Positions 16,823-23,661 of a stretch of DNA of 46,237 nucleotides are shown here, piece after piece (positions within the stretch are counted from its first letter, which is position 1; each line of letters begins with the position of its first letter). Source of the stretch: an uncultured archaeon. GTDB taxonomy: Archaea > Asgardarchaeota > Lokiarchaeia > Sigyniarchaeales > SOKP01. The notes beneath the pieces were generated by a model. The model was not told the DNA's origin. It saw only the letters and a list, made by a program, of their open reading frames with translations, and searched no databases. Made by a program: the position numbers and the translations under genes. Where the stretch lies: positions 1-46,237 of the forward strand of contig CAZDTP010000022.1 of assembly GCA_964508365.1 (NCBI GenBank), read 5' to 3'.

Positions 16823-17212
16823 TTATAAATTTAAATTCTGGTTAAAAGTTATTAAGTTATGCTTCAATTCTTCTTTAAATAGATGATAGTAGGTGAATTT
16901 CTGCTTTTTATATCCTTGAATTAACCCCGCAGCAACTAATTTTCTTAAATGGTGAGATATTGTTGATTGTGATTTATTTAATATAGTTTCTAACTCACAA
17001 ACGCACCTATCTTGCTCTTTTAAAGCATTAATAATGATTAATCGCTCTTTTGATGCAATCGCGGATGTGAATCTTTCAATGACATCTAAATTCTCATTCT
17101 CTTCTAATTTCTTACCCAATATTAGTAACTTATCGAAATCAGAGTTTGAATTTGAGCAATTTTTACAGGCACACAACATCTTCTTAATTTCTTGACTTCT
17201 TTTTTGCTTCAT
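16823..17212 (-). CDS. arsR: ArsR/SmtB-family metalloregulator
   Basis: ERLIII, CVCEL As(III)-type CxC site, SQSTISHHLRKL helix, GLI..YY. Extra N-terminal CACKNC. Divergent from acr3. Confidence 0.9.
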   Translation of the reverse strand: MKQKRSQEIKKMLCACKNCSNSNSDFDKLLILGKKLEENENLDVIERFTSAIASKERLIIINALKEQDRCVCELETILNKSQSTISHHLRKLVAAGLIQGYKKQKFTYYHLFKEELKHNLITFNQNLNL

Positions 17213-17382: not shown

Positions 17383-17556
17383 ATGGATAAATCCTATAAT
17401 CTAAGGGTTGGGGTAATTTTAGATGGAAAGTATGGTGAAAGAGCTTATGAGAATATTAAGAAAAGATTAAATGCATTTTGGATAACTCTCAAACAATTTA
17501 TAACTAAAATAAAAAATGAACAAAAAGTTAGAAAAGAAAATTCAAAACTTAATTGA
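17383..17556 (+). pseudogene. Truncated remnant resembling the N-terminus of a DUF166-family protein
   Basis: 57-codon ORF MDKSYNLRVGVILDGKYGERAYENIKKRLNAFW... The G(K/E)YGERxxENI start is typical of DUF166, but the rest degrades into low-complexity K/N sequence and stops. Confidence 0.45.
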
Positions 17557-17561
17557 TCATT

Positions 17562-18653
17562 ATGGTTGAAGAAGATATTGAAAGTAAAGCAATAGATAAA
17601 TTAAATAAATCAGAAGAAGCAAAACAAGAATCAAGAAAGATTAACTACTTCGAAAAGCTTCTTCCTATATGGGTGGTATTATGTATCATCATAGGTTTAA
17701 TTCTTTCCCAGTTTGTACCAGAGATAAGTCAAGCGATAAATTCTTTACAAATTGGAGGTATTTCTATACCAATTGGGATTTGTTTATTTTTAATGATGTA
17801 CCCCGCAATGTTGAATTTACAAGCATCAGAATTGAAGAAATTAGGTAGAAACCCAAAACCTATAATCTTGACATTAATTTCTAATTGGCTTGTTGCTCCT
17901 TTTGTGGGCTTGGCGATGGTTAATATATTTCTACCAGGCACAACTGAATCTATAATACAATTGAAAGTTGCGATAATATTACTCTCAAGTTCGCCTTGTA
18001 CGGCTATGGTTTTAGTGTGGGGATGGATGGCGAAGGGGAACCAAGAACAAAATGTGTTAAATACGAGCTTAAATACGATAACAATAATCTTTTTGTACGT
18101 AGGAATGGTTTCCTTATTAACAGGTATTCAAAATATTCCAATTAATCCATGGTTATTATTAATCTCTTTAGTATTCTTCATTGGTATACCATTATTATTA
18201 GGAATAGTAAGCAAGAGATTAATCATCTCATCAAAAGGAATATCGTGGTTTAATGAAAGCTACAAACCATTTGTTGGAAAGATTTCAATTGTTGCTTTAT
18301 TGACAACTTTAGTTGTTTTATTTTCTCTAAATGGCGAAGTTCTTCTAGATAATCCTGATTTGTTACTACTAGTCTCAATTCCTCTTTTAGTAGGTTTTGT
18401 TATTGTAGTTGCTTACAACGTTTTTATTACTAAAATCTTCAAAATGAAGTATAAAGAGGCAGTTATTACCGTAATTATCGGATCATCAAGTCACTTTGAA
18501 ATTGCCATTGCAACAGCTATCGCTATATATGGAGTTGGTTCCATAGCAGCTTTAGGAACTACAATGGGTTTATTTTGGGAAGTACCTGTTATGCTAGCAA
18601 TAGTATATCTTGGAAAATTCCTTGAGAAACGAGGTTTCTGGAAAATTAATTAA
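17562..18653 (+). CDS. acr3: Acr3-family arsenite/antimonite efflux transporter
   Basis: MMYPAM, NWLVAPF, the conserved PCTAMV Cys motif and SSHFEIAIATAI; ~10 TM. Likely ATG at 17562. Confidence 0.92.
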   Translation: MVEEDIESKAIDKLNKSEEAKQESRKINYFEKLLPIWVVLCIIIGLILSQFVPEISQAINSLQIGGISIPIGICLFLMMYPAMLNLQASELKKLGRNPKPIILTLISNWLVAPFVGLAMVNIFLPGTTESIIQLKVAIILLSSSPCTAMVLVWGWMAKGNQEQNVLNTSLNTITIIFLYVGMVSLLTGIQNIPINPWLLLISLVFFIGIPLLLGIVSKRLIISSKGISWFNESYKPFVGKISIVALLTTLVVLFSLNGEVLLDNPDLLLLVSIPLLVGFVIVVAYNVFITKIFKMKYKEAVITVIIGSSSHFEIAIATAIAIYGVGSIAALGTTMGLFWEVPVMLAIVYLGKFLEKRGFWKIN

Positions 18654-18696: not shown

Positions 18697-20364
18697 ATGG
18701 CAGTAGTATATATGCGTAAACTAGAGCAAGAACCTGATAGTTATGATTCTAAATTCACAGCACTTACAAAGGGAGTAAATTTAGAAGTTAGAGAATGGAT
18801 ACTTGATAAGGTTGGTACGTCTAAATCCATCCTAGAAGTTGGATGCGGAACTGGTAGTCTCGCCTCTCAAATGGCGTTAAACGGAAATAATGTTACCGCA
18901 ATTGATATAAATTTTCAAATGATCAACTACGCCATGCAGAACTATCCTTCTGATTTAAAAGAAGGTTCGCTTTTATATCAAAAGGGATCTTTTTCCTACA
19001 TGCCAGTAGAGGTTAATTCCCAAGATTTGGTAGTTAGTACCTTTATGTTATCTGAACTTCGGCCTTTTGAACAACAAATCTTTCTTAGAAATGCCTGGAG
19101 AGTTTTAAAACCACATGGTAGCTTATTAATCGCAGCAGAATTTGTTCCAAATGGTTTTTGGAAACTGATATTTAAAATAAAAAGATGGAGATATAAAAAA
19201 AAACTGAGGCGTCTTAAATTGCGGAGTACTTTTCTATTAAAATGGTTCTTCAACTATATTGAACCAATTGGATTCAAAATCAATGCAAAAGAAGCCTGGA
19301 AACATGGAACAATTCAAGCTCTCGAACTGATAAAGGATGGCGATAAAGGAATCAATGAGCCAGGATATTATCAACCTAACCCAAAACGATTCAAAGGGAT
19401 AATATCACAGCTAAGAATATATCGCTGCATTTACACAGGTCAAATTGATCTCGTTCCAATAGATCCTGGTATTTACAAATCTGGTAATCCTACTGAATCC
19501 TCTCCTATAATAGTGACAGCTAACTATGAATTCACTTACATTAAAGTAATGAGAGATTTAAAGGGTATTGATGCATGGGTATTATGTGTTGATTCTAACG
19601 GGATTAATGTGTGGTGTGCTGCGAGAGGAAATGATTTTGGAAATAATCAACTAATCGAGGCTGTTGAAGCTACTGGTATTGAAAGGTTAACAGACAAAAA
19701 AACATTAATTCTCCCACAATTATCTGCAGGAGGAGTTGCTACTCCAGAATTGCAGAAAAAATCTAAAAATTTTCCCTTTAGGGTTGTTTATGGGCCTGTT
19801 TGGTCTAAAGATTTACTCGAGTTTCTTGAAAAACGCCCCGCTCGAAAACCCGATAGAATGAAACTTGCTAAATTCACCCTAAAACATCGATTTCGTGGTT
19901 TTATCACGCACACAACATTTCTATTAAGAAAGATTTTCATGCTACCTCTTATAAGTTTATTCGTTGTATTCCTTATACTTAATGCTCTCAATATATCCGC
20001 TAAATTGTGGTGGGTTGGTGAATTATTACTTTGGATAATTACATCAAATTTCATTATAATTTTTGCATTTCCGATAGCAAATTTCACTCGTCGGTTTATT
20101 ATTAAGGGAATCTTCTTTGGAACTTTGAATGTTTTTATTTTGGGAATAATCTCCTATTTATTTCATAATTCGATAATTTTTACACTTTGGAACTTAAGTT
20201 TTTTCTTTTGGGTTTCATTTTTTTCAACAATGTCTTTAAGTGGATATACGATGGCCACTAGTCCTAGCGAAATACAAGAGGAGTACCCCCTTTTTAGTAT
20301 TTTAAATAAAGTTTTATTAACAATAAGTATAATTTCATTATTAATTGGAATCATTTTTCTCTAA
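18697..20364 (+). CDS. Fusion of a class I SAM-dependent methyltransferase (CpaM-like) and an HgcA-like corrinoid-binding domain with C-terminal TM helices
   Basis: ATG 18697 follows a GAGGT RBS. MTase motifs LEVGCGTG, AIDIN and LKPHG. Then PGIYKSGNP..SPIIVTANY..WVLCVDSNGINVWCAARG (cap helix, 19606-19629) and ILPQLSAGGV, with 4-5 TM helices at the end. Confidence 0.85.
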   Translation: MAVVYMRKLEQEPDSYDSKFTALTKGVNLEVREWILDKVGTSKSILEVGCGTGSLASQMALNGNNVTAIDINFQMINYAMQNYPSDLKEGSLLYQKGSFSYMPVEVNSQDLVVSTFMLSELRPFEQQIFLRNAWRVLKPHGSLLIAAEFVPNGFWKLIFKIKRWRYKKKLRRLKLRSTFLLKWFFNYIEPIGFKINAKEAWKHGTIQALELIKDGDKGINEPGYYQPNPKRFKGIISQLRIYRCIYTGQIDLVPIDPGIYKSGNPTESSPIIVTANYEFTYIKVMRDLKGIDAWVLCVDSNGINVWCAARGNDFGNNQLIEAVEATGIERLTDKKTLILPQLSAGGVATPELQKKSKNFPFRVVYGPVWSKDLLEFLEKRPARKPDRMKLAKFTLKHRFRGFITHTTFLLRKIFMLPLISLFVVFLILNALNISAKLWWVGELLLWIITSNFIIIFAFPIANFTRRFIIKGIFFGTLNVFILGIISYLFHNSIIFTLWNLSFFFWVSFFSTMSLSGYTMATSPSEIQEEYPLFSILNKVLLTISIISLLIGIIFL

Positions 20365-20419: not shown

Positions 20420-20782
20420 ATGACTGAAGCAAAATTTAAAGCGAGTTTAGATAAGTTATCTATAAAGGATTTTAAAATCTTTATAAAGGAAGATATTTGC
20501 AACGGATGCGGTTTATGTGCAGAATTGTGTCCCTTTGGGCTTCCACAACAAATGGATTCTGGGAAATACGAAATTAATAATCCTAAGCTATGTACTGAAT
20601 GCAGTGCTTGTAAGAGGAATTGTCCCGTAAATGCCATCATTATGATGGAAAAGAAGGGGTGCGGTTGTTTATGGAATGCAAGAGCAAAAGCAAAAAATTC
20701 CAATTCAGGAAATAAAGACATTAATAGTTGCGCCTGTGATCCAGAAAATGAAAGTGAAACAAAATCAAATTGTTGTGGTTAA
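20420..20782 (+). CDS. HgcB-like 2x[4Fe-4S] ferredoxin with a Cys-rich C-terminal tail
   Basis: CNGCGLCAELCP and CTECSACKRNCP, followed by GCGC, CAC and a terminal CCG. Directly after the hgcA-like gene, with a GGAGGT RBS. Confidence 0.85.
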   Translation: MTEAKFKASLDKLSIKDFKIFIKEDICNGCGLCAELCPFGLPQQMDSGKYEINNPKLCTECSACKRNCPVNAIIMMEKKGCGCLWNARAKAKNSNSGNKDINSCACDPENESETKSNCCG

Positions 20783-20834: not shown

Positions 20835-21272
20835 GTGATAAAAATGGAAAAAGAAGGATTAAAAATATCGGTTAGTGAAAATAAAAATTGTCAAATAAAA
20901 TTAGAAAATTCATGCTGTGGTTCATCAAATTCTTGTTGTGAGGACTTAACTTCAAAAGAATCGTCTAGCACTCACGAAATTAATTTGAAAGAGACAGTAA
21001 ATATCGATTCGAATAAATTATCAGTAGATGTATATGTTCCTCTGAATGCTTGCGAATGCGTTTGGTCTCAATTTATGAACCTTGTATTTTCGGCACTTAG
21101 CCCTTACATGAAACACATAAGGTTTGAAACAAAAGACTTAGATTCTGAGGAAGCTCGCAAGCTTAACTTAACGGGAAATTGCGTTGTTATTGACGGTACA
21201 AAGAAATATATAACTTCATTCGCATTAAAGAAAGATTTACCTATACTTCTAAAAGAAAAAGGATTATTATAA
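20835..21272 (+). CDS. Cys-rich protein with a thioredoxin-like C-terminal domain (possible metallochaperone)
   Basis: N-terminal SCCG..SCCE, then VDVYVPLNACEC..IRFETKDL..VVIDG, a thioredoxin/ArsD-like topology. Same strand as the preceding genes; GGTGA RBS. Confidence 0.6.
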   Translation: MIKMEKEGLKISVSENKNCQIKLENSCCGSSNSCCEDLTSKESSSTHEINLKETVNIDSNKLSVDVYVPLNACECVWSQFMNLVFSALSPYMKHIRFETKDLDSEEARKLNLTGNCVVIDGTKKYITSFALKKDLPILLKEKGLL

Positions 21273-21315: not shown

Positions 21316-21654
21316 ATTAAAAAAATTAAATTAACAATTTTTGGACCTGAAAAAGAGCTATCAAACGGAATTGAGTATGAAGTTTCTATAGAAGAGGAAG
21401 GAACGATAATTGAAGCATTGGCGACTCTAGATAGACAACTTCTTAACAATCCTAAGCTTTCACCGTTTCCTTTATATAAAGGTCTGATTAAAAGCTATCT
21501 CCAATTAATCTGGGATCCACAAAAGAATGCGATTTATGAAGACTGTGCAAGCAATGCCTATGGACCAAATAAAGCGTTTATGCCTCTTCTGGACGATGTA
21601 AGCTTCAATCTGTATCCGAACAGCGACATAACTCTTATAGTCCACGCTGATTGA
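21316..21654 (+). CDS. Beta-grasp (MoaD/ThiS-like) protein lacking the C-terminal GG; non-canonical ATT start
   Basis: The frame is open from 21310. GGTGAT at 21305-21310 precedes ATT at 21316. KIKLTIFGPEKEL..YEVSIEEEGTIIEAL..LQLIWD..FNLYPNSDITL follows the MoaD pattern. Ends HAD-TGA-TGA. Confidence 0.6.
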   Translation: MKKIKLTIFGPEKELSNGIEYEVSIEEEGTIIEALATLDRQLLNNPKLSPFPLYKGLIKSYLQLIWDPQKNAIYEDCASNAYGPNKAFMPLLDDVSFNLYPNSDITLIVHAD

Positions 21655-21840: not shown

Positions 21841-22131
21841 TTTATATTACTACTACCTTTTTTTCAAACCTAAAGGTCTTTATTTGAGTTATTATTCCAT
21901 CTACATTAAATGATTCGTTTCATTGATTACCCAAGCATACAAATTAATGGCATCAAAACTCCCAACCGCAGAATAAAGAGGTTCATGATCATATCTTGCA
22001 ACATAAGCGTTCCAGAATGGAACGGATACGGCTATTTTTGAAATATTATGCAGAAATAATAGAATTGTCTCGTAACTGCAATTTCCACTTGAATCTGCCC
22101 AAAATGTATCAAGTTAAGATTGGACATCAAT
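21841..22131 (-). pseudogene. Decayed fragment of a paralog of the adjacent ABC substrate-binding protein
   Basis: Reads IDVQS*LDTFWADSSGNCSYETIL..VSVPFWNAYVARYDHEPLYSAVGSFDAI..W.IN; the intact gene reads IDVQSQLDTFWTDSLGACEFETVL..VSIPFWNAFIARFSHEPLYTAVGSYDAI..WAIN. TAA at 22114-22116, then a frameshift (SFNVDGII..KVVV). Confidence 0.85.
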
Positions 22132-22281
22132 TTCTATAACAATAAAACTAGGTTCAACACCAACGTATGAATAATATTAAAGACTAATGATGATTTTAAT
22201 TGTATTTTAGAGTAATAAAGAAATAAACACAAAACAAGGAATTAAAAAAAAAAAAACATAATTAATTTTTTTGATATCTCT

Positions 22282-23661
22282 TTATGGATTCCAGGTCCAT
22301 GTTGGATGAGCTACTACTGGTGTTTGATAGGATCCCGTAGCTAAAGTGTTTGGATAGGGATTACCATGAGCGGGTACTACAACTTTCGTACCACCTGCTT
22401 GCCATTGCACGAATAGCGTATAACCATAGGGATATCCTTCTTGAATGTCATGACTAGGCGTAAAAGCACCCATTCCTCCAGCGCCAGGGAGGTAATTTGC
22501 TCTAGTCAAAGTCTCAAGCTGGGCCACTATAGTATCAGCATTGAAGGATTGAGATTTATTGATTGCCCACGAATACATTTTAATTGCATCATAACTACCT
22601 ACTGCCGTATAGAGGGGTTCGTGGCTAAATCTAGCAATAAAAGCATTCCAGAACGGAATGGAAACCGGTGTCTTTGCTGTCGCGTGCAAGGATTGTAACA
22701 CAGTCTCAAACTCACAAGCTCCAAGAGAATCAGTCCAGAAGGTGTCGAGTTGAGATTGGACATCGATACCAATCACGACAAATCCGTATCCTGGTAAGCC
22801 TGCTTTATAAGATTTCATCATCAAAATACCACCCTGGGCAGAGATGACAGGAATTAAGATCTGGGTACCGTTTGTTTGAAGTTGAGCCACGTACCCATCC
22901 ATATCAGTTTGAGTAGCGGTAATGGGGTAGGCGACGGAAGCGACTATCTGACCTCCATATAAAGGAAGAACACCTTTTAGCGCACCTACTAGCGGGGTGG
23001 TCCAATCTAAATCTTCATACAAAATACCGACCTTATAATGGCCTAATACATACATATAGGTTGCAAGAAATCCGATAATTTCAGCTCCTAAAGAACTCGA
23101 GTTGATTGGGTTGTTTCTAAAGAAATACTTGTATTTCGCATAATTATCCAAAACATTTTGACAGAAGGAATCAGTTGCTGCTCCGGTATTGATGAATGGA
23201 ATCTTTGCGGCCATGACTGTCTCGATATAAACTGCCAATGATTCTGTTCTAAACCCTCCAGTAAGGAATTGAGCTTGCTTATAATTAATAATTCGTTCAG
23301 CAGCGGCAACTCCTTTGGTGGTATCCAGGTTTGGATTGGATTCATCCGTGTCTTCTGAAGTAACTCCAATATAATAGGTTTTACCTCCAACATTGATCCC
23401 TCCAGCACTGTTTATCTCATACGCAGCTTGAATTGCCCCTTCTACTTGTCCTGCACCTTGAATCTCATAAATGCCACCAAGAACACCAATTCTTATTATC
23501 TGATCTTCCGTTATGTTTGCAGGTGCACCAGGACAGTCTTTAGCTCCCCAAGAATAGGGCGCTACGAATATCCAGACGGTTACACCAATACCCACACCAA
23601 TAACAGCAATCAATACAATAGCTAGGATTCTTTTTGTTAATTGTTCCATTTTTTTTGTCAC
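22282..23661 (-). CDS. livK: Branched-chain amino acid-type (Liv family) ABC substrate-binding protein, membrane-anchored
   Basis: N-terminal TM anchor, IRIGVLG, AAYEINSAGGINVGG, AAERII, GGFRTE, YFFR, YDAI. Divergent from the permeases. Confidence 0.85.
   Translation of the reverse strand: MTKKMEQLTKRILAIVLIAVIGVGIGVTVWIFVAPYSWGAKDCPGAPANITEDQIIRIGVLGGIYEIQGAGQVEGAIQAAYEINSAGGINVGGKTYYIGVTSEDTDESNPNLDTTKGVAAAERIINYKQAQFLTGGFRTESLAVYIETVMAAKIPFINTGAATDSFCQNVLDNYAKYKYFFRNNPINSSSLGAEIIGFLATYMYVLGHYKVGILYEDLDWTTPLVGALKGVLPLYGGQIVASVAYPITATQTDMDGYVAQLQTNGTQILIPVISAQGGILMMKSYKAGLPGYGFVVIGIDVQSQLDTFWTDSLGACEFETVLQSLHATAKTPVSIPFWNAFIARFSHEPLYTAVGSYDAIKMYSWAINKSQSFNADTIVAQLETLTRANYLPGAGGMGAFTPSHDIQEGYPYGYTLFVQWQAGGTKVVVPAHGNPYPNTLATGSYQTPVVAHPTWTWNP

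Follow-up and report, generated by a model that had tools for sequence, protein, structure and literature searches.

The window analysed here is a stretch of 46,237 nucleotides (contig CAZDTP010000022.1 of assembly GCA_964508365.1, forward strand; G+C content about 30%) from an uncultured archaeon of the Lokiarchaeia (Sigyniarchaeales; SOKP01), and it carries a gene at 18697-20364 in which a CpaM-type methyltransferase is joined in frame to an HgcA-like corrinoid and transmembrane protein. The product may be a self-contained methyltransferase dependent on both S-adenosylmethionine (SAM) and a corrinoid, working with an HgcB-like ferredoxin encoded downstream, and its acceptor is most likely arsenite, As(III), or methylarsenite, MAs(III); the probability of this reading is put at about one half. 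Since the gene lies in the only arsenite-pump (acr3) operon of the genome, arsenic or an arsenic-like element, rather than mercury, is probably the target. Domain make-up, conservation of the catalytic motifs, co-inheritance of the modules, clade placement and operon context were computed directly.

Architecture and spread of the fusion

An earlier note, made from the letters of the window, had described one open reading frame (ORF) holding a class I methyltransferase, a corrinoid domain and transmembrane helices, and Pfam, NCBIfam and AlphaFold2 all support that description, with five transmembrane helices. The parts of the fusion are as follows.

18697-20364, plus strand: CpaM-type methyltransferase-HgcA-like corrinoid/transmembrane fusion gene; a single unbroken ORF from the ATG at 18697 to the stop at 20364, 555 aa
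18697-19341, plus strand: class I SAM methyltransferase domain, aa 1-215 (NF043040, 139.8 bits; seven strands in the model)
18829-18858, plus strand: SAM-binding motif I, ILEVGCGTGS, aa 45-54 (G49 and G51 invariant; G53 kept in at least 90% of the aligned sequences)
19447-19866, plus strand: corrinoid-binding domain of CdhD/CFeSP type, about aa 251-390 (Pfam CdhD, 59 bits; matches to CFeSP gamma by sequence and to the HgcA model by fold)
19606-19629, plus strand: cap helix NVWCAARG (N304-V-W-C307-A-A-R-G311), with Cys307 as the presumed cobalt ligand (W306 and C307 invariant in 55 fusions)
19879-20358, plus strand: five-helix transmembrane domain, aa 395-554 (AlphaFold2 helices 395-430, 438-461, 467-490, 493-517 and 523-554)

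An alternative TTG start at 18610 was ruled out, since it would make the ORF overlap acr3 and the orthologues begin at an MxxxYM motif, the position equivalent to the ATG. In Pfam, models of class I methyltransferases cover aa 40-168, with Methyltransf_11/25 spanning aa 45-145, and CdhD covers aa 235-344; the alignment to the HgcA profile extends to profile position 321 of 325. The N-terminus of the methyltransferase domain carries the CpaM-type motif YMxxLE..P..YD, a basic amphipathic helix is inserted at aa 155-172, and the only Cys of the domain is located in motif I. Across 55 aligned fusions, with members down to 22% identity to the window protein, residues G49, G51, D70, D110, E148, W306 and C307 are invariant.

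The AlphaFold2 model built on this alignment has a mean predicted local distance difference test score (pLDDT) of 91.5 and a predicted template modelling score of 0.88, and it contains a seven-stranded class I methyltransferase fold, the cap helix (305-310) and, over 395-554, five long helices, with no disordered linker. The methyltransferase, corrinoid and transmembrane parts are predicted to pack as one unit. Among PDB folds, the deposited HgcA model 9a0b_A matches best (E 7e-13), and small-molecule and lipid methyltransferases come next; by sequence, the PDB returned no HgcA structure, and the closest entry was the CFeSP gamma subunit (2h9a, E 5e-9).

The earlier note had itself raised the possibility that the junction is an assembly artefact. 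Such an origin, from assembly or from gene calling, is ruled out by the recurrence of the fusion: the same architecture is found in more than 120 protein clusters (541-578 aa, 63-92% identity) and at about 75 genomic loci from independent assemblies, and the linker is conserved and confidently modelled. Two cultured strains with complete genomes, Promethearchaeum syntrophicum MK-D1 (NZ_CP042905.2) and Ca. Lokiarchaeum ossiferum, have full-length orthologues with 51% identity. Close protein matches of the ORF all come from Lokiarchaeota/Promethearchaeota and other Asgard metagenome-assembled genomes, and clustering at 50% added full-length fusions down to 22-35% identity, some of them from Anaerolineae bacteria. 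A match was found in 76 of 201 sampled Asgard genomes, about 45 of these having a full-length match free of stops, and in 33 of the 40 genomes from the organism's own family; 80 loci emerged when species-representative genomes were scanned. One metagenome-assembled genome (ABR03) has two contigs that each bear a fusion (L065 and L070). A locus on DATKTW010000069.1 (L047) encodes a protein 95% identical to that of the window within the same Asgard synteny (SMC, AAA-like, arsR, acr3); the contig is labelled 'Candidatus Nanopelagicaceae bacterium' and is probably mis-binned or mislabelled.

Clade placement and the arrangements of the modules

Profile searches matched each domain of the fusion to a family (CpaM, CdhD, and HgcA or HgcAB-like), with NCBIfam scores below the curated cut-offs. 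The window protein reaches 179.7 bits with the HgcAB-like fusion protein NF043039 (cut-off 285; aa 253-512, profile 14-270 of 350) and 174.1 bits with HgcA NF040863 (cut-off 275; aa 255-550). Its N-terminal domain finds its best family in CpaM, NF043040 (aa 3-209, profile 2-212 of 216), although the score lies below the cut-off of 180; the resemblance to CpaM suggested in the earlier note is upheld. In keeping with CpaM, the domain has intact SAM motifs (G49, G51, D70 and D110) and is partnered, by in-frame fusion, with an HgcAB-like corrinoid protein. It does not belong to ArsM (NF008823), which scores 32.2 bits against a cut-off of 263, and aa 1-215 contain one Cys only.

The corrinoid half has the cap-helix Cys and the C-terminal five-helix domain of HgcA. 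Its cap helix retains the Trp and Cys of the canonical NVWCAAGK and differs by Gly-to-Arg and Lys-to-Gly changes, exactly as first read from the sequence, so that it falls outside the high-stringency HgcA motifs of Hg-MATE, N(V/I)WC(A/S)(A/G/S)GK (PMC10087281). The earlier note had called this a variant cap helix; it is the signature of a whole clade and no peculiarity of this protein. Among the 150 best representatives, every protein fused to a methyltransferase or a ferredoxin lacks the cap-helix Lys and follows the pattern NVWC[AGS][ASG]x[GE]G..F, whereas the Lys is present in nearly all of the unfused proteins (roughly 100, with lengths of 300-400 aa), typically as NVWCAAGKGTFGT. The AARG version is specific to the Asgard sub-clade of the window. 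The Lys-type HgcA representatives, about 100 in all, are without exception unfused, in agreement with the prior statement that canonical HgcA has no methyltransferase domain. The altered cap helix may change the acceptor.

The same division appears in a tree of the corrinoid domain, obtained by a quick search and unrooted, in which a branch (Shimodaira-Hasegawa-like approximate likelihood ratio test, SH-aLRT, 93) separates all 30 Lys-type HgcA sequences from the window protein. On the side without Lys, methyltransferase-HgcA, methyltransferase-HgcA-HgcB and HgcAB-like proteins are interleaved, and the window protein is placed within a group of seven methyltransferase-HgcA sequences (support 98). 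Judged by its sequence, it is a member of the CpaM and HgcAB-like paralogue clade and not a canonical HgcA; it shares with the HgcAB-like proteins the Lys-less cap helix and the clade, and its ferredoxin is a gene of its own, 55 nt downstream, rather than part of the same chain. The association of CpaM with HgcA-type proteins is already catalogued by NCBIfam and PGAP, the latter giving the name CpaM to some Hodarchaeales fusions of 548 aa. Asgard sequences were placed in the fused-HgcAB clade by Lin et al. (2023), in an alignment with its first 327 columns trimmed (PMC10083202). Literature searches on CpaM, HgcAB-like proteins and corrinoid arsenic methylation found no paper describing a methyltransferase-HgcA fusion.

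A second, split copy of the system is present in the same genome (76591-78373 of another contig, C9; locus L001, 774-1433 and 1471-2571), and it is the kind of pair that the earlier note had proposed to look for. A cpaM gene of 219 aa (NF043040, 250 bits, above the cut-off) lies directly upstream of an HgcAB-like gene of 366 aa (NF043039, 377.8 bits, also above the cut-off), with a gap of 37 nt. The HgcAB-like protein has the cap helix NVWCGACG and no Cys tail after its ferredoxin part; the halves of the window fusion are 29% (methyltransferase, against the free CpaM) and 28% (HgcA-like) identical to this pair, and have thus diverged from it to an equal degree. CpaM-HgcA-HgcB triple fusions are present in other taxa. 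One set of modules is thus arranged as a free methyltransferase with a corrinoid-ferredoxin protein (split pair), as a methyltransferase-corrinoid protein with a free ferredoxin (window), and as a single chain (other taxa); therefore, the genomic arrangements are strong evidence for a joint function of the three parts.

The fusion had been proposed as a Rosetta stone that names the enzyme loading the methyl group on the corrinoid. The split, double and triple forms do tie a SAM methyltransferase to the Lys-less clade, and by comparison of sequences the link applies to that clade only. For canonical HgcAB the proposal is not borne out, given the absence of methyltransferase fusions among its Lys-type representatives and its unaided use of SAM, which has indeed been reported as its methyl donor (PMC11588087). 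It may be speculated that SAM handling was outsourced in the Lys-less clade, as suggested by the strict pairing between loss of the cap-helix Lys and presence of CpaM, a pairing that rests on one deep split of the tree.

A functional mercury methylase like HgcAB would share with the window system the corrinoid domain, the cap-helix Cys, the five transmembrane helices and a ferredoxin ending in a Cys pair. The closest fold to the window protein is an HgcA model, and Asgard hgcA-like genes are listed in some surveys among the putative methylators (PMC12484752). Such a function nevertheless seems unlikely, because the protein scores 174 against the 275 bits of the HgcA cut-off, fails every accepted cap-helix motif (PMC10087281) and lies outside the Lys-type clade (SH-aLRT 93), and because none of the tested cultured carriers of related fused HgcAB made methylmercury (PMC10087281, PMC10083202). 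The window protein is not to be filed as HgcA nor counted as a mercury methylase, and in practice such genes should stay out of mercury-methylator counts in metagenome surveys.

Operon context, proposed chemistry and rival acceptors

The fusion is accompanied in the window by the following genes, those on the plus strand from acr3 onwards being separated by gaps of 43-55 nt.

16823-17212, minus strand (divergent): arsR-family regulator (Pfam HTH_5, 64 bits; NCBIfam metalloregulator ArsR/SmtB, 70 bits, above the cut-off of 55)
17401-17511, plus strand: putative DUF166 remnant, 37 aa, between arsR and acr3 (tblastn 49% identity, E 8.5e-8, to an intact DUF166 gene at the same position in relatives)
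17553-18653, plus strand: acr3-type arsenite efflux permease (TIGR00832, 266.8 bits, just below the cut-off of 282.8; profile 2-325 of 327)
20420-20782, plus strand: HgcB-like 2x[4Fe-4S] ferredoxin (best NCBIfam family HgcB NF040864, 46.7 bits, below the cut-off of 99)
20835-21272, plus strand: 145-aa CxC protein with a predicted thioredoxin fold (no Pfam or NCBIfam family)
21316-21654, plus strand: conserved small protein of about 112 aa (tblastn 41% identity to a 117-aa gene of locus L017; no family match)

The context is considered an arsenic one because the fusion is accompanied by an ArsR with a CVC motif (R-C-V-C-E, an As(III)-type site, with an N-terminal CxCxxC in addition) and by the only acr3 locus that a profile search found in the whole genome. 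A search of this genome for ArsM gave no match over the cut-off, the best one having 74.6 of the 263 bits. The ferredoxin has two CX2CX2CX3CP motifs, GCGCLW, CAC and a terminal CC. In the CxC protein, residues 1-55 are disordered and rich in Cys, with SCCG/SCCE repeats whose number varies among relatives, and residues 62-145 form a thioredoxin fold (core pLDDT about 95) with an invariant C73-x-C75 at the position of the thioredoxin active site. A fold search gave weak, generic thioredoxin matches (E 2e-3, template modelling score about 0.6); ArsD (PF06953) and Thioredoxin_3 (PF13192) were rejected as families for this protein, as neither profile matched and the fold search did not single out ArsD. 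It is a companion of the fusion in many orthologous loci, and the small ORF of about 112 aa follows it in many of them. A DUF166 gene is often adjacent to the fusion in relatives, and the remnant at 17401-17511 resembles a gene that has decayed within the spacer between arsR and acr3. Farther downstream, a 79-aa stretch at 21913-22149 on the minus strand shares 61% identity with a portion of the neighbouring periplasmic-binding-protein gene (22282-23661) and, by that identity, may be a duplicated gene fragment.

Upstream sequence of at least 2.5 kb was available for 60 orthologous loci, of which 26 have arsR and acr3 upstream, 12 have arsR alone, 13 a MarR-type regulator with an N-terminal Cys pair, and nine none of these. 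The first group includes three Promethearchaeum loci and three others without the SMC synteny of the window, and arsR and acr3 are also present at the Lokiarchaeum locus. In the MarR group (L067, L070, L073, L075, L077, L081, L083-L086, L089, L105 and L116; orthologues 64-69% identical), the regulator is a 154-aa protein encoded directly upstream of the fusion and the ferredoxin, with no ars genes within 6 kb. The HgcB-like ferredoxin follows nearly every orthologous fusion for which downstream sequence is available, with GCGC(L/I)W and the terminal Cys pair kept. In some relatives a true ArsM (NF008823, 347 bits) adjoins the fusion, immediately upstream. Within the organism's own family, 20 genomes have the fusion only, eight the fusion and ArsM, four ArsM only and three to four neither; this complementary distribution is a weak trend among genomes that are related and not independent, and it was dropped as support.

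The chemical steps, the function of the methyltransferase domain in loading the corrinoid and the nature of the acceptor are inferred from these observations. The ferredoxin would reduce the protein-bound corrinoid to Co(I); the CpaM-type domain would bind SAM and methylate Co(I) to methyl-Co(III), with Cys307 as a stabilising axial ligand; and the methyl group would then pass to a soft metalloid bound to a thiol or thiolate at the membrane face, here most likely As(III) or MAs(III). Vicinal-Cys motifs in the tail of the ferredoxin would present the acceptor, perhaps together with the CxC thioredoxin-fold protein. The first steps have a precedent in purified canonical HgcAB, which is reduced to Co(I) via HgcB and then methylated by SAM to Cys-ligated methyl-Co(III) (PMC11588087).

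Several points weigh against this proposal. The scores with HgcAB-like, HgcA and CpaM are all under their curated cut-offs. The MarR-type regulator replaces ars genes at 13 of the 60 loci, and nine of the 60 have neither kind of neighbour. Distant fusions (22-35% identity, including bacterial ones) lie in unrelated contexts where the ferredoxin is kept and ars genes are rare, and the bacterial triple fusions are surrounded by housekeeping genes; therefore, the arsenic role may hold only for a sub-clade. ArsM is adjacent or co-resident in eight of the 28 fusion-bearing family genomes, which argues against simple redundancy. CobS (PF02654) was not found in the genome, whose estimated completeness is 100%, and the corrinoid for the HgcA-like and CdhD-type proteins would therefore need to be, and probably is, imported. 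We know of no class I methyltransferase that methylates a protein-bound corrinoid, and a literature search found no published test of CpaM methylating its partner corrinoid. Finally, canonical HgcAB needs no extra methyltransferase in vitro (PMC11588087).

The last point bears on the possibility that the methyltransferase domain is not the loader, and instead methylates a substrate or product in tandem, or that the corrinoid demethylates methylarsenicals and the SAM domain serves for reactivation only. Methionine synthase (MetH) uses SAM solely for reactivation. Canonical HgcAB accepts SAM without an additional domain (PMC11588087), and the mechanism of anaerobic methylarsenical demethylation is described as poorly resolved in PMC10579292 and bioRxiv 10.64898/2026.08.27.747368. 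Against these arguments, the single Cys inside motif I leaves no ArsM-like As(III) site in the domain, and CpaM is strictly paired, in each of three arrangements, with the Lys-less corrinoid clade, which fits a direct partnership, as does the compact model. A role other than loading is hence rather improbable.

A more serious competitor, which has perhaps half the weight of the arsenic proposal, keeps the same transfer from SAM through the corrinoid and assigns a different acceptor: Sb, Se, Te, Bi, another metal, or a non-metal membrane or thiol compound, with ArsR and Acr3 serving general metalloid stress regulation. Acr3 also exports Sb(III), the contexts differ among loci (MarR-type in 13 of 60, none in nine of 60, housekeeping genes around the bacterial triple fusions), a true ArsM encoded in some relatives may already cover arsenic methylation there, and the methyltransferase fold has its nearest matches among small-molecule and lipid methyltransferases. 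On the other side, the gene lies between the only acr3 and its Cys-rich partners, together with a CVC-type ArsR, and the operon has no other metalloid-specific gene.

A bolder and less probable reading is that the protein is a corrinoid-dependent arsenite or methylarsenite methyltransferase responsible for the methylcobalamin route by which anaerobic archaea have long been reported to methylate arsenic. In that case the enzyme would be the sole arsenic methylase in most Lokiarchaeia without ArsM, its CpaM domain would be the first known case of a class I SAM methyltransferase loading a corrinoid bound to a protein, and metalloid methylation would become a candidate native function of the HgcAB superfamily. 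In the mercury literature, the fused HgcAB paralogues are regarded as non-methylating outgroups. The window locus, the split copy in the same genome and the triple fusions together give genomic support for SAM as the methyl source in the superfamily, independent of the 2024 biochemistry, and the location in arsenic operons of Loki-type Asgard archaea offers a concrete hypothesis of B12-dependent arsenic methylation, which the two cultured strains make testable. New in this study are the split pair of the same genome, the Lys/CpaM dichotomy across the 150 representatives, the interleaved tree, the context count over 60 loci and the orthologues in the two cultured strains.

Comparison with known systems

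With HgcA and HgcB (NF040863 and NF040864; Pseudodesulfovibrio mercurii ND132), the window system has in common the Cys cap helix, the corrinoid domain, five transmembrane helices, a dicluster ferredoxin with a terminal Cys pair and, as proposed here, SAM as the donor (PMC11588087). HgcA differs in having no methyltransferase domain and in its cap helix NVWCAAGK, in place of which the window protein has RG for GK, and the two stand on opposite sides of the main split of the tree. Genes for hgcAB are also linked to ArsR and ars genes and are often flanked by the latter (bioRxiv 10.1101/2022.10.17.512643; PMC7438021).

In the Wood-Ljungdahl pathway, the large subunit of CFeSP (AcsC/CdhE) has a homologous corrinoid domain (the 2h9a match) that is methylated by a separate methyltransferase, MeTr. 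However, the donor there is methyl-tetrahydrofolate, delivered by a TIM-barrel enzyme, and CFeSP is soluble, with neither a transmembrane domain nor a Cys cap ligand. Like the window domain, ArsM (NF008823) belongs to the class I SAM methyltransferases and has its gene in ars operons, but it binds As(III) through conserved cysteines and needs no corrinoid, while the window domain has one Cys and scores 32 bits with that family.

The closest counterpart is the pair formed by CpaM (NF043040, described as 'corrinoid protein-associated methyltransferase' and a hypothetical equivalog) and the HgcAB-like protein (NF043039), which has the same three modules and belongs to the same clade of the tree. 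In the reference pair the methyltransferase is free and HgcA is joined to the ferredoxin, whereas in the window the methyltransferase is joined to HgcA and the ferredoxin is free; the free ferredoxin has Cys-rich tails that the HgcAB-like protein of the split copy does not have. The window system further differs from this pair by its sub-cut-off scores and by its distinct location in an ars operon.

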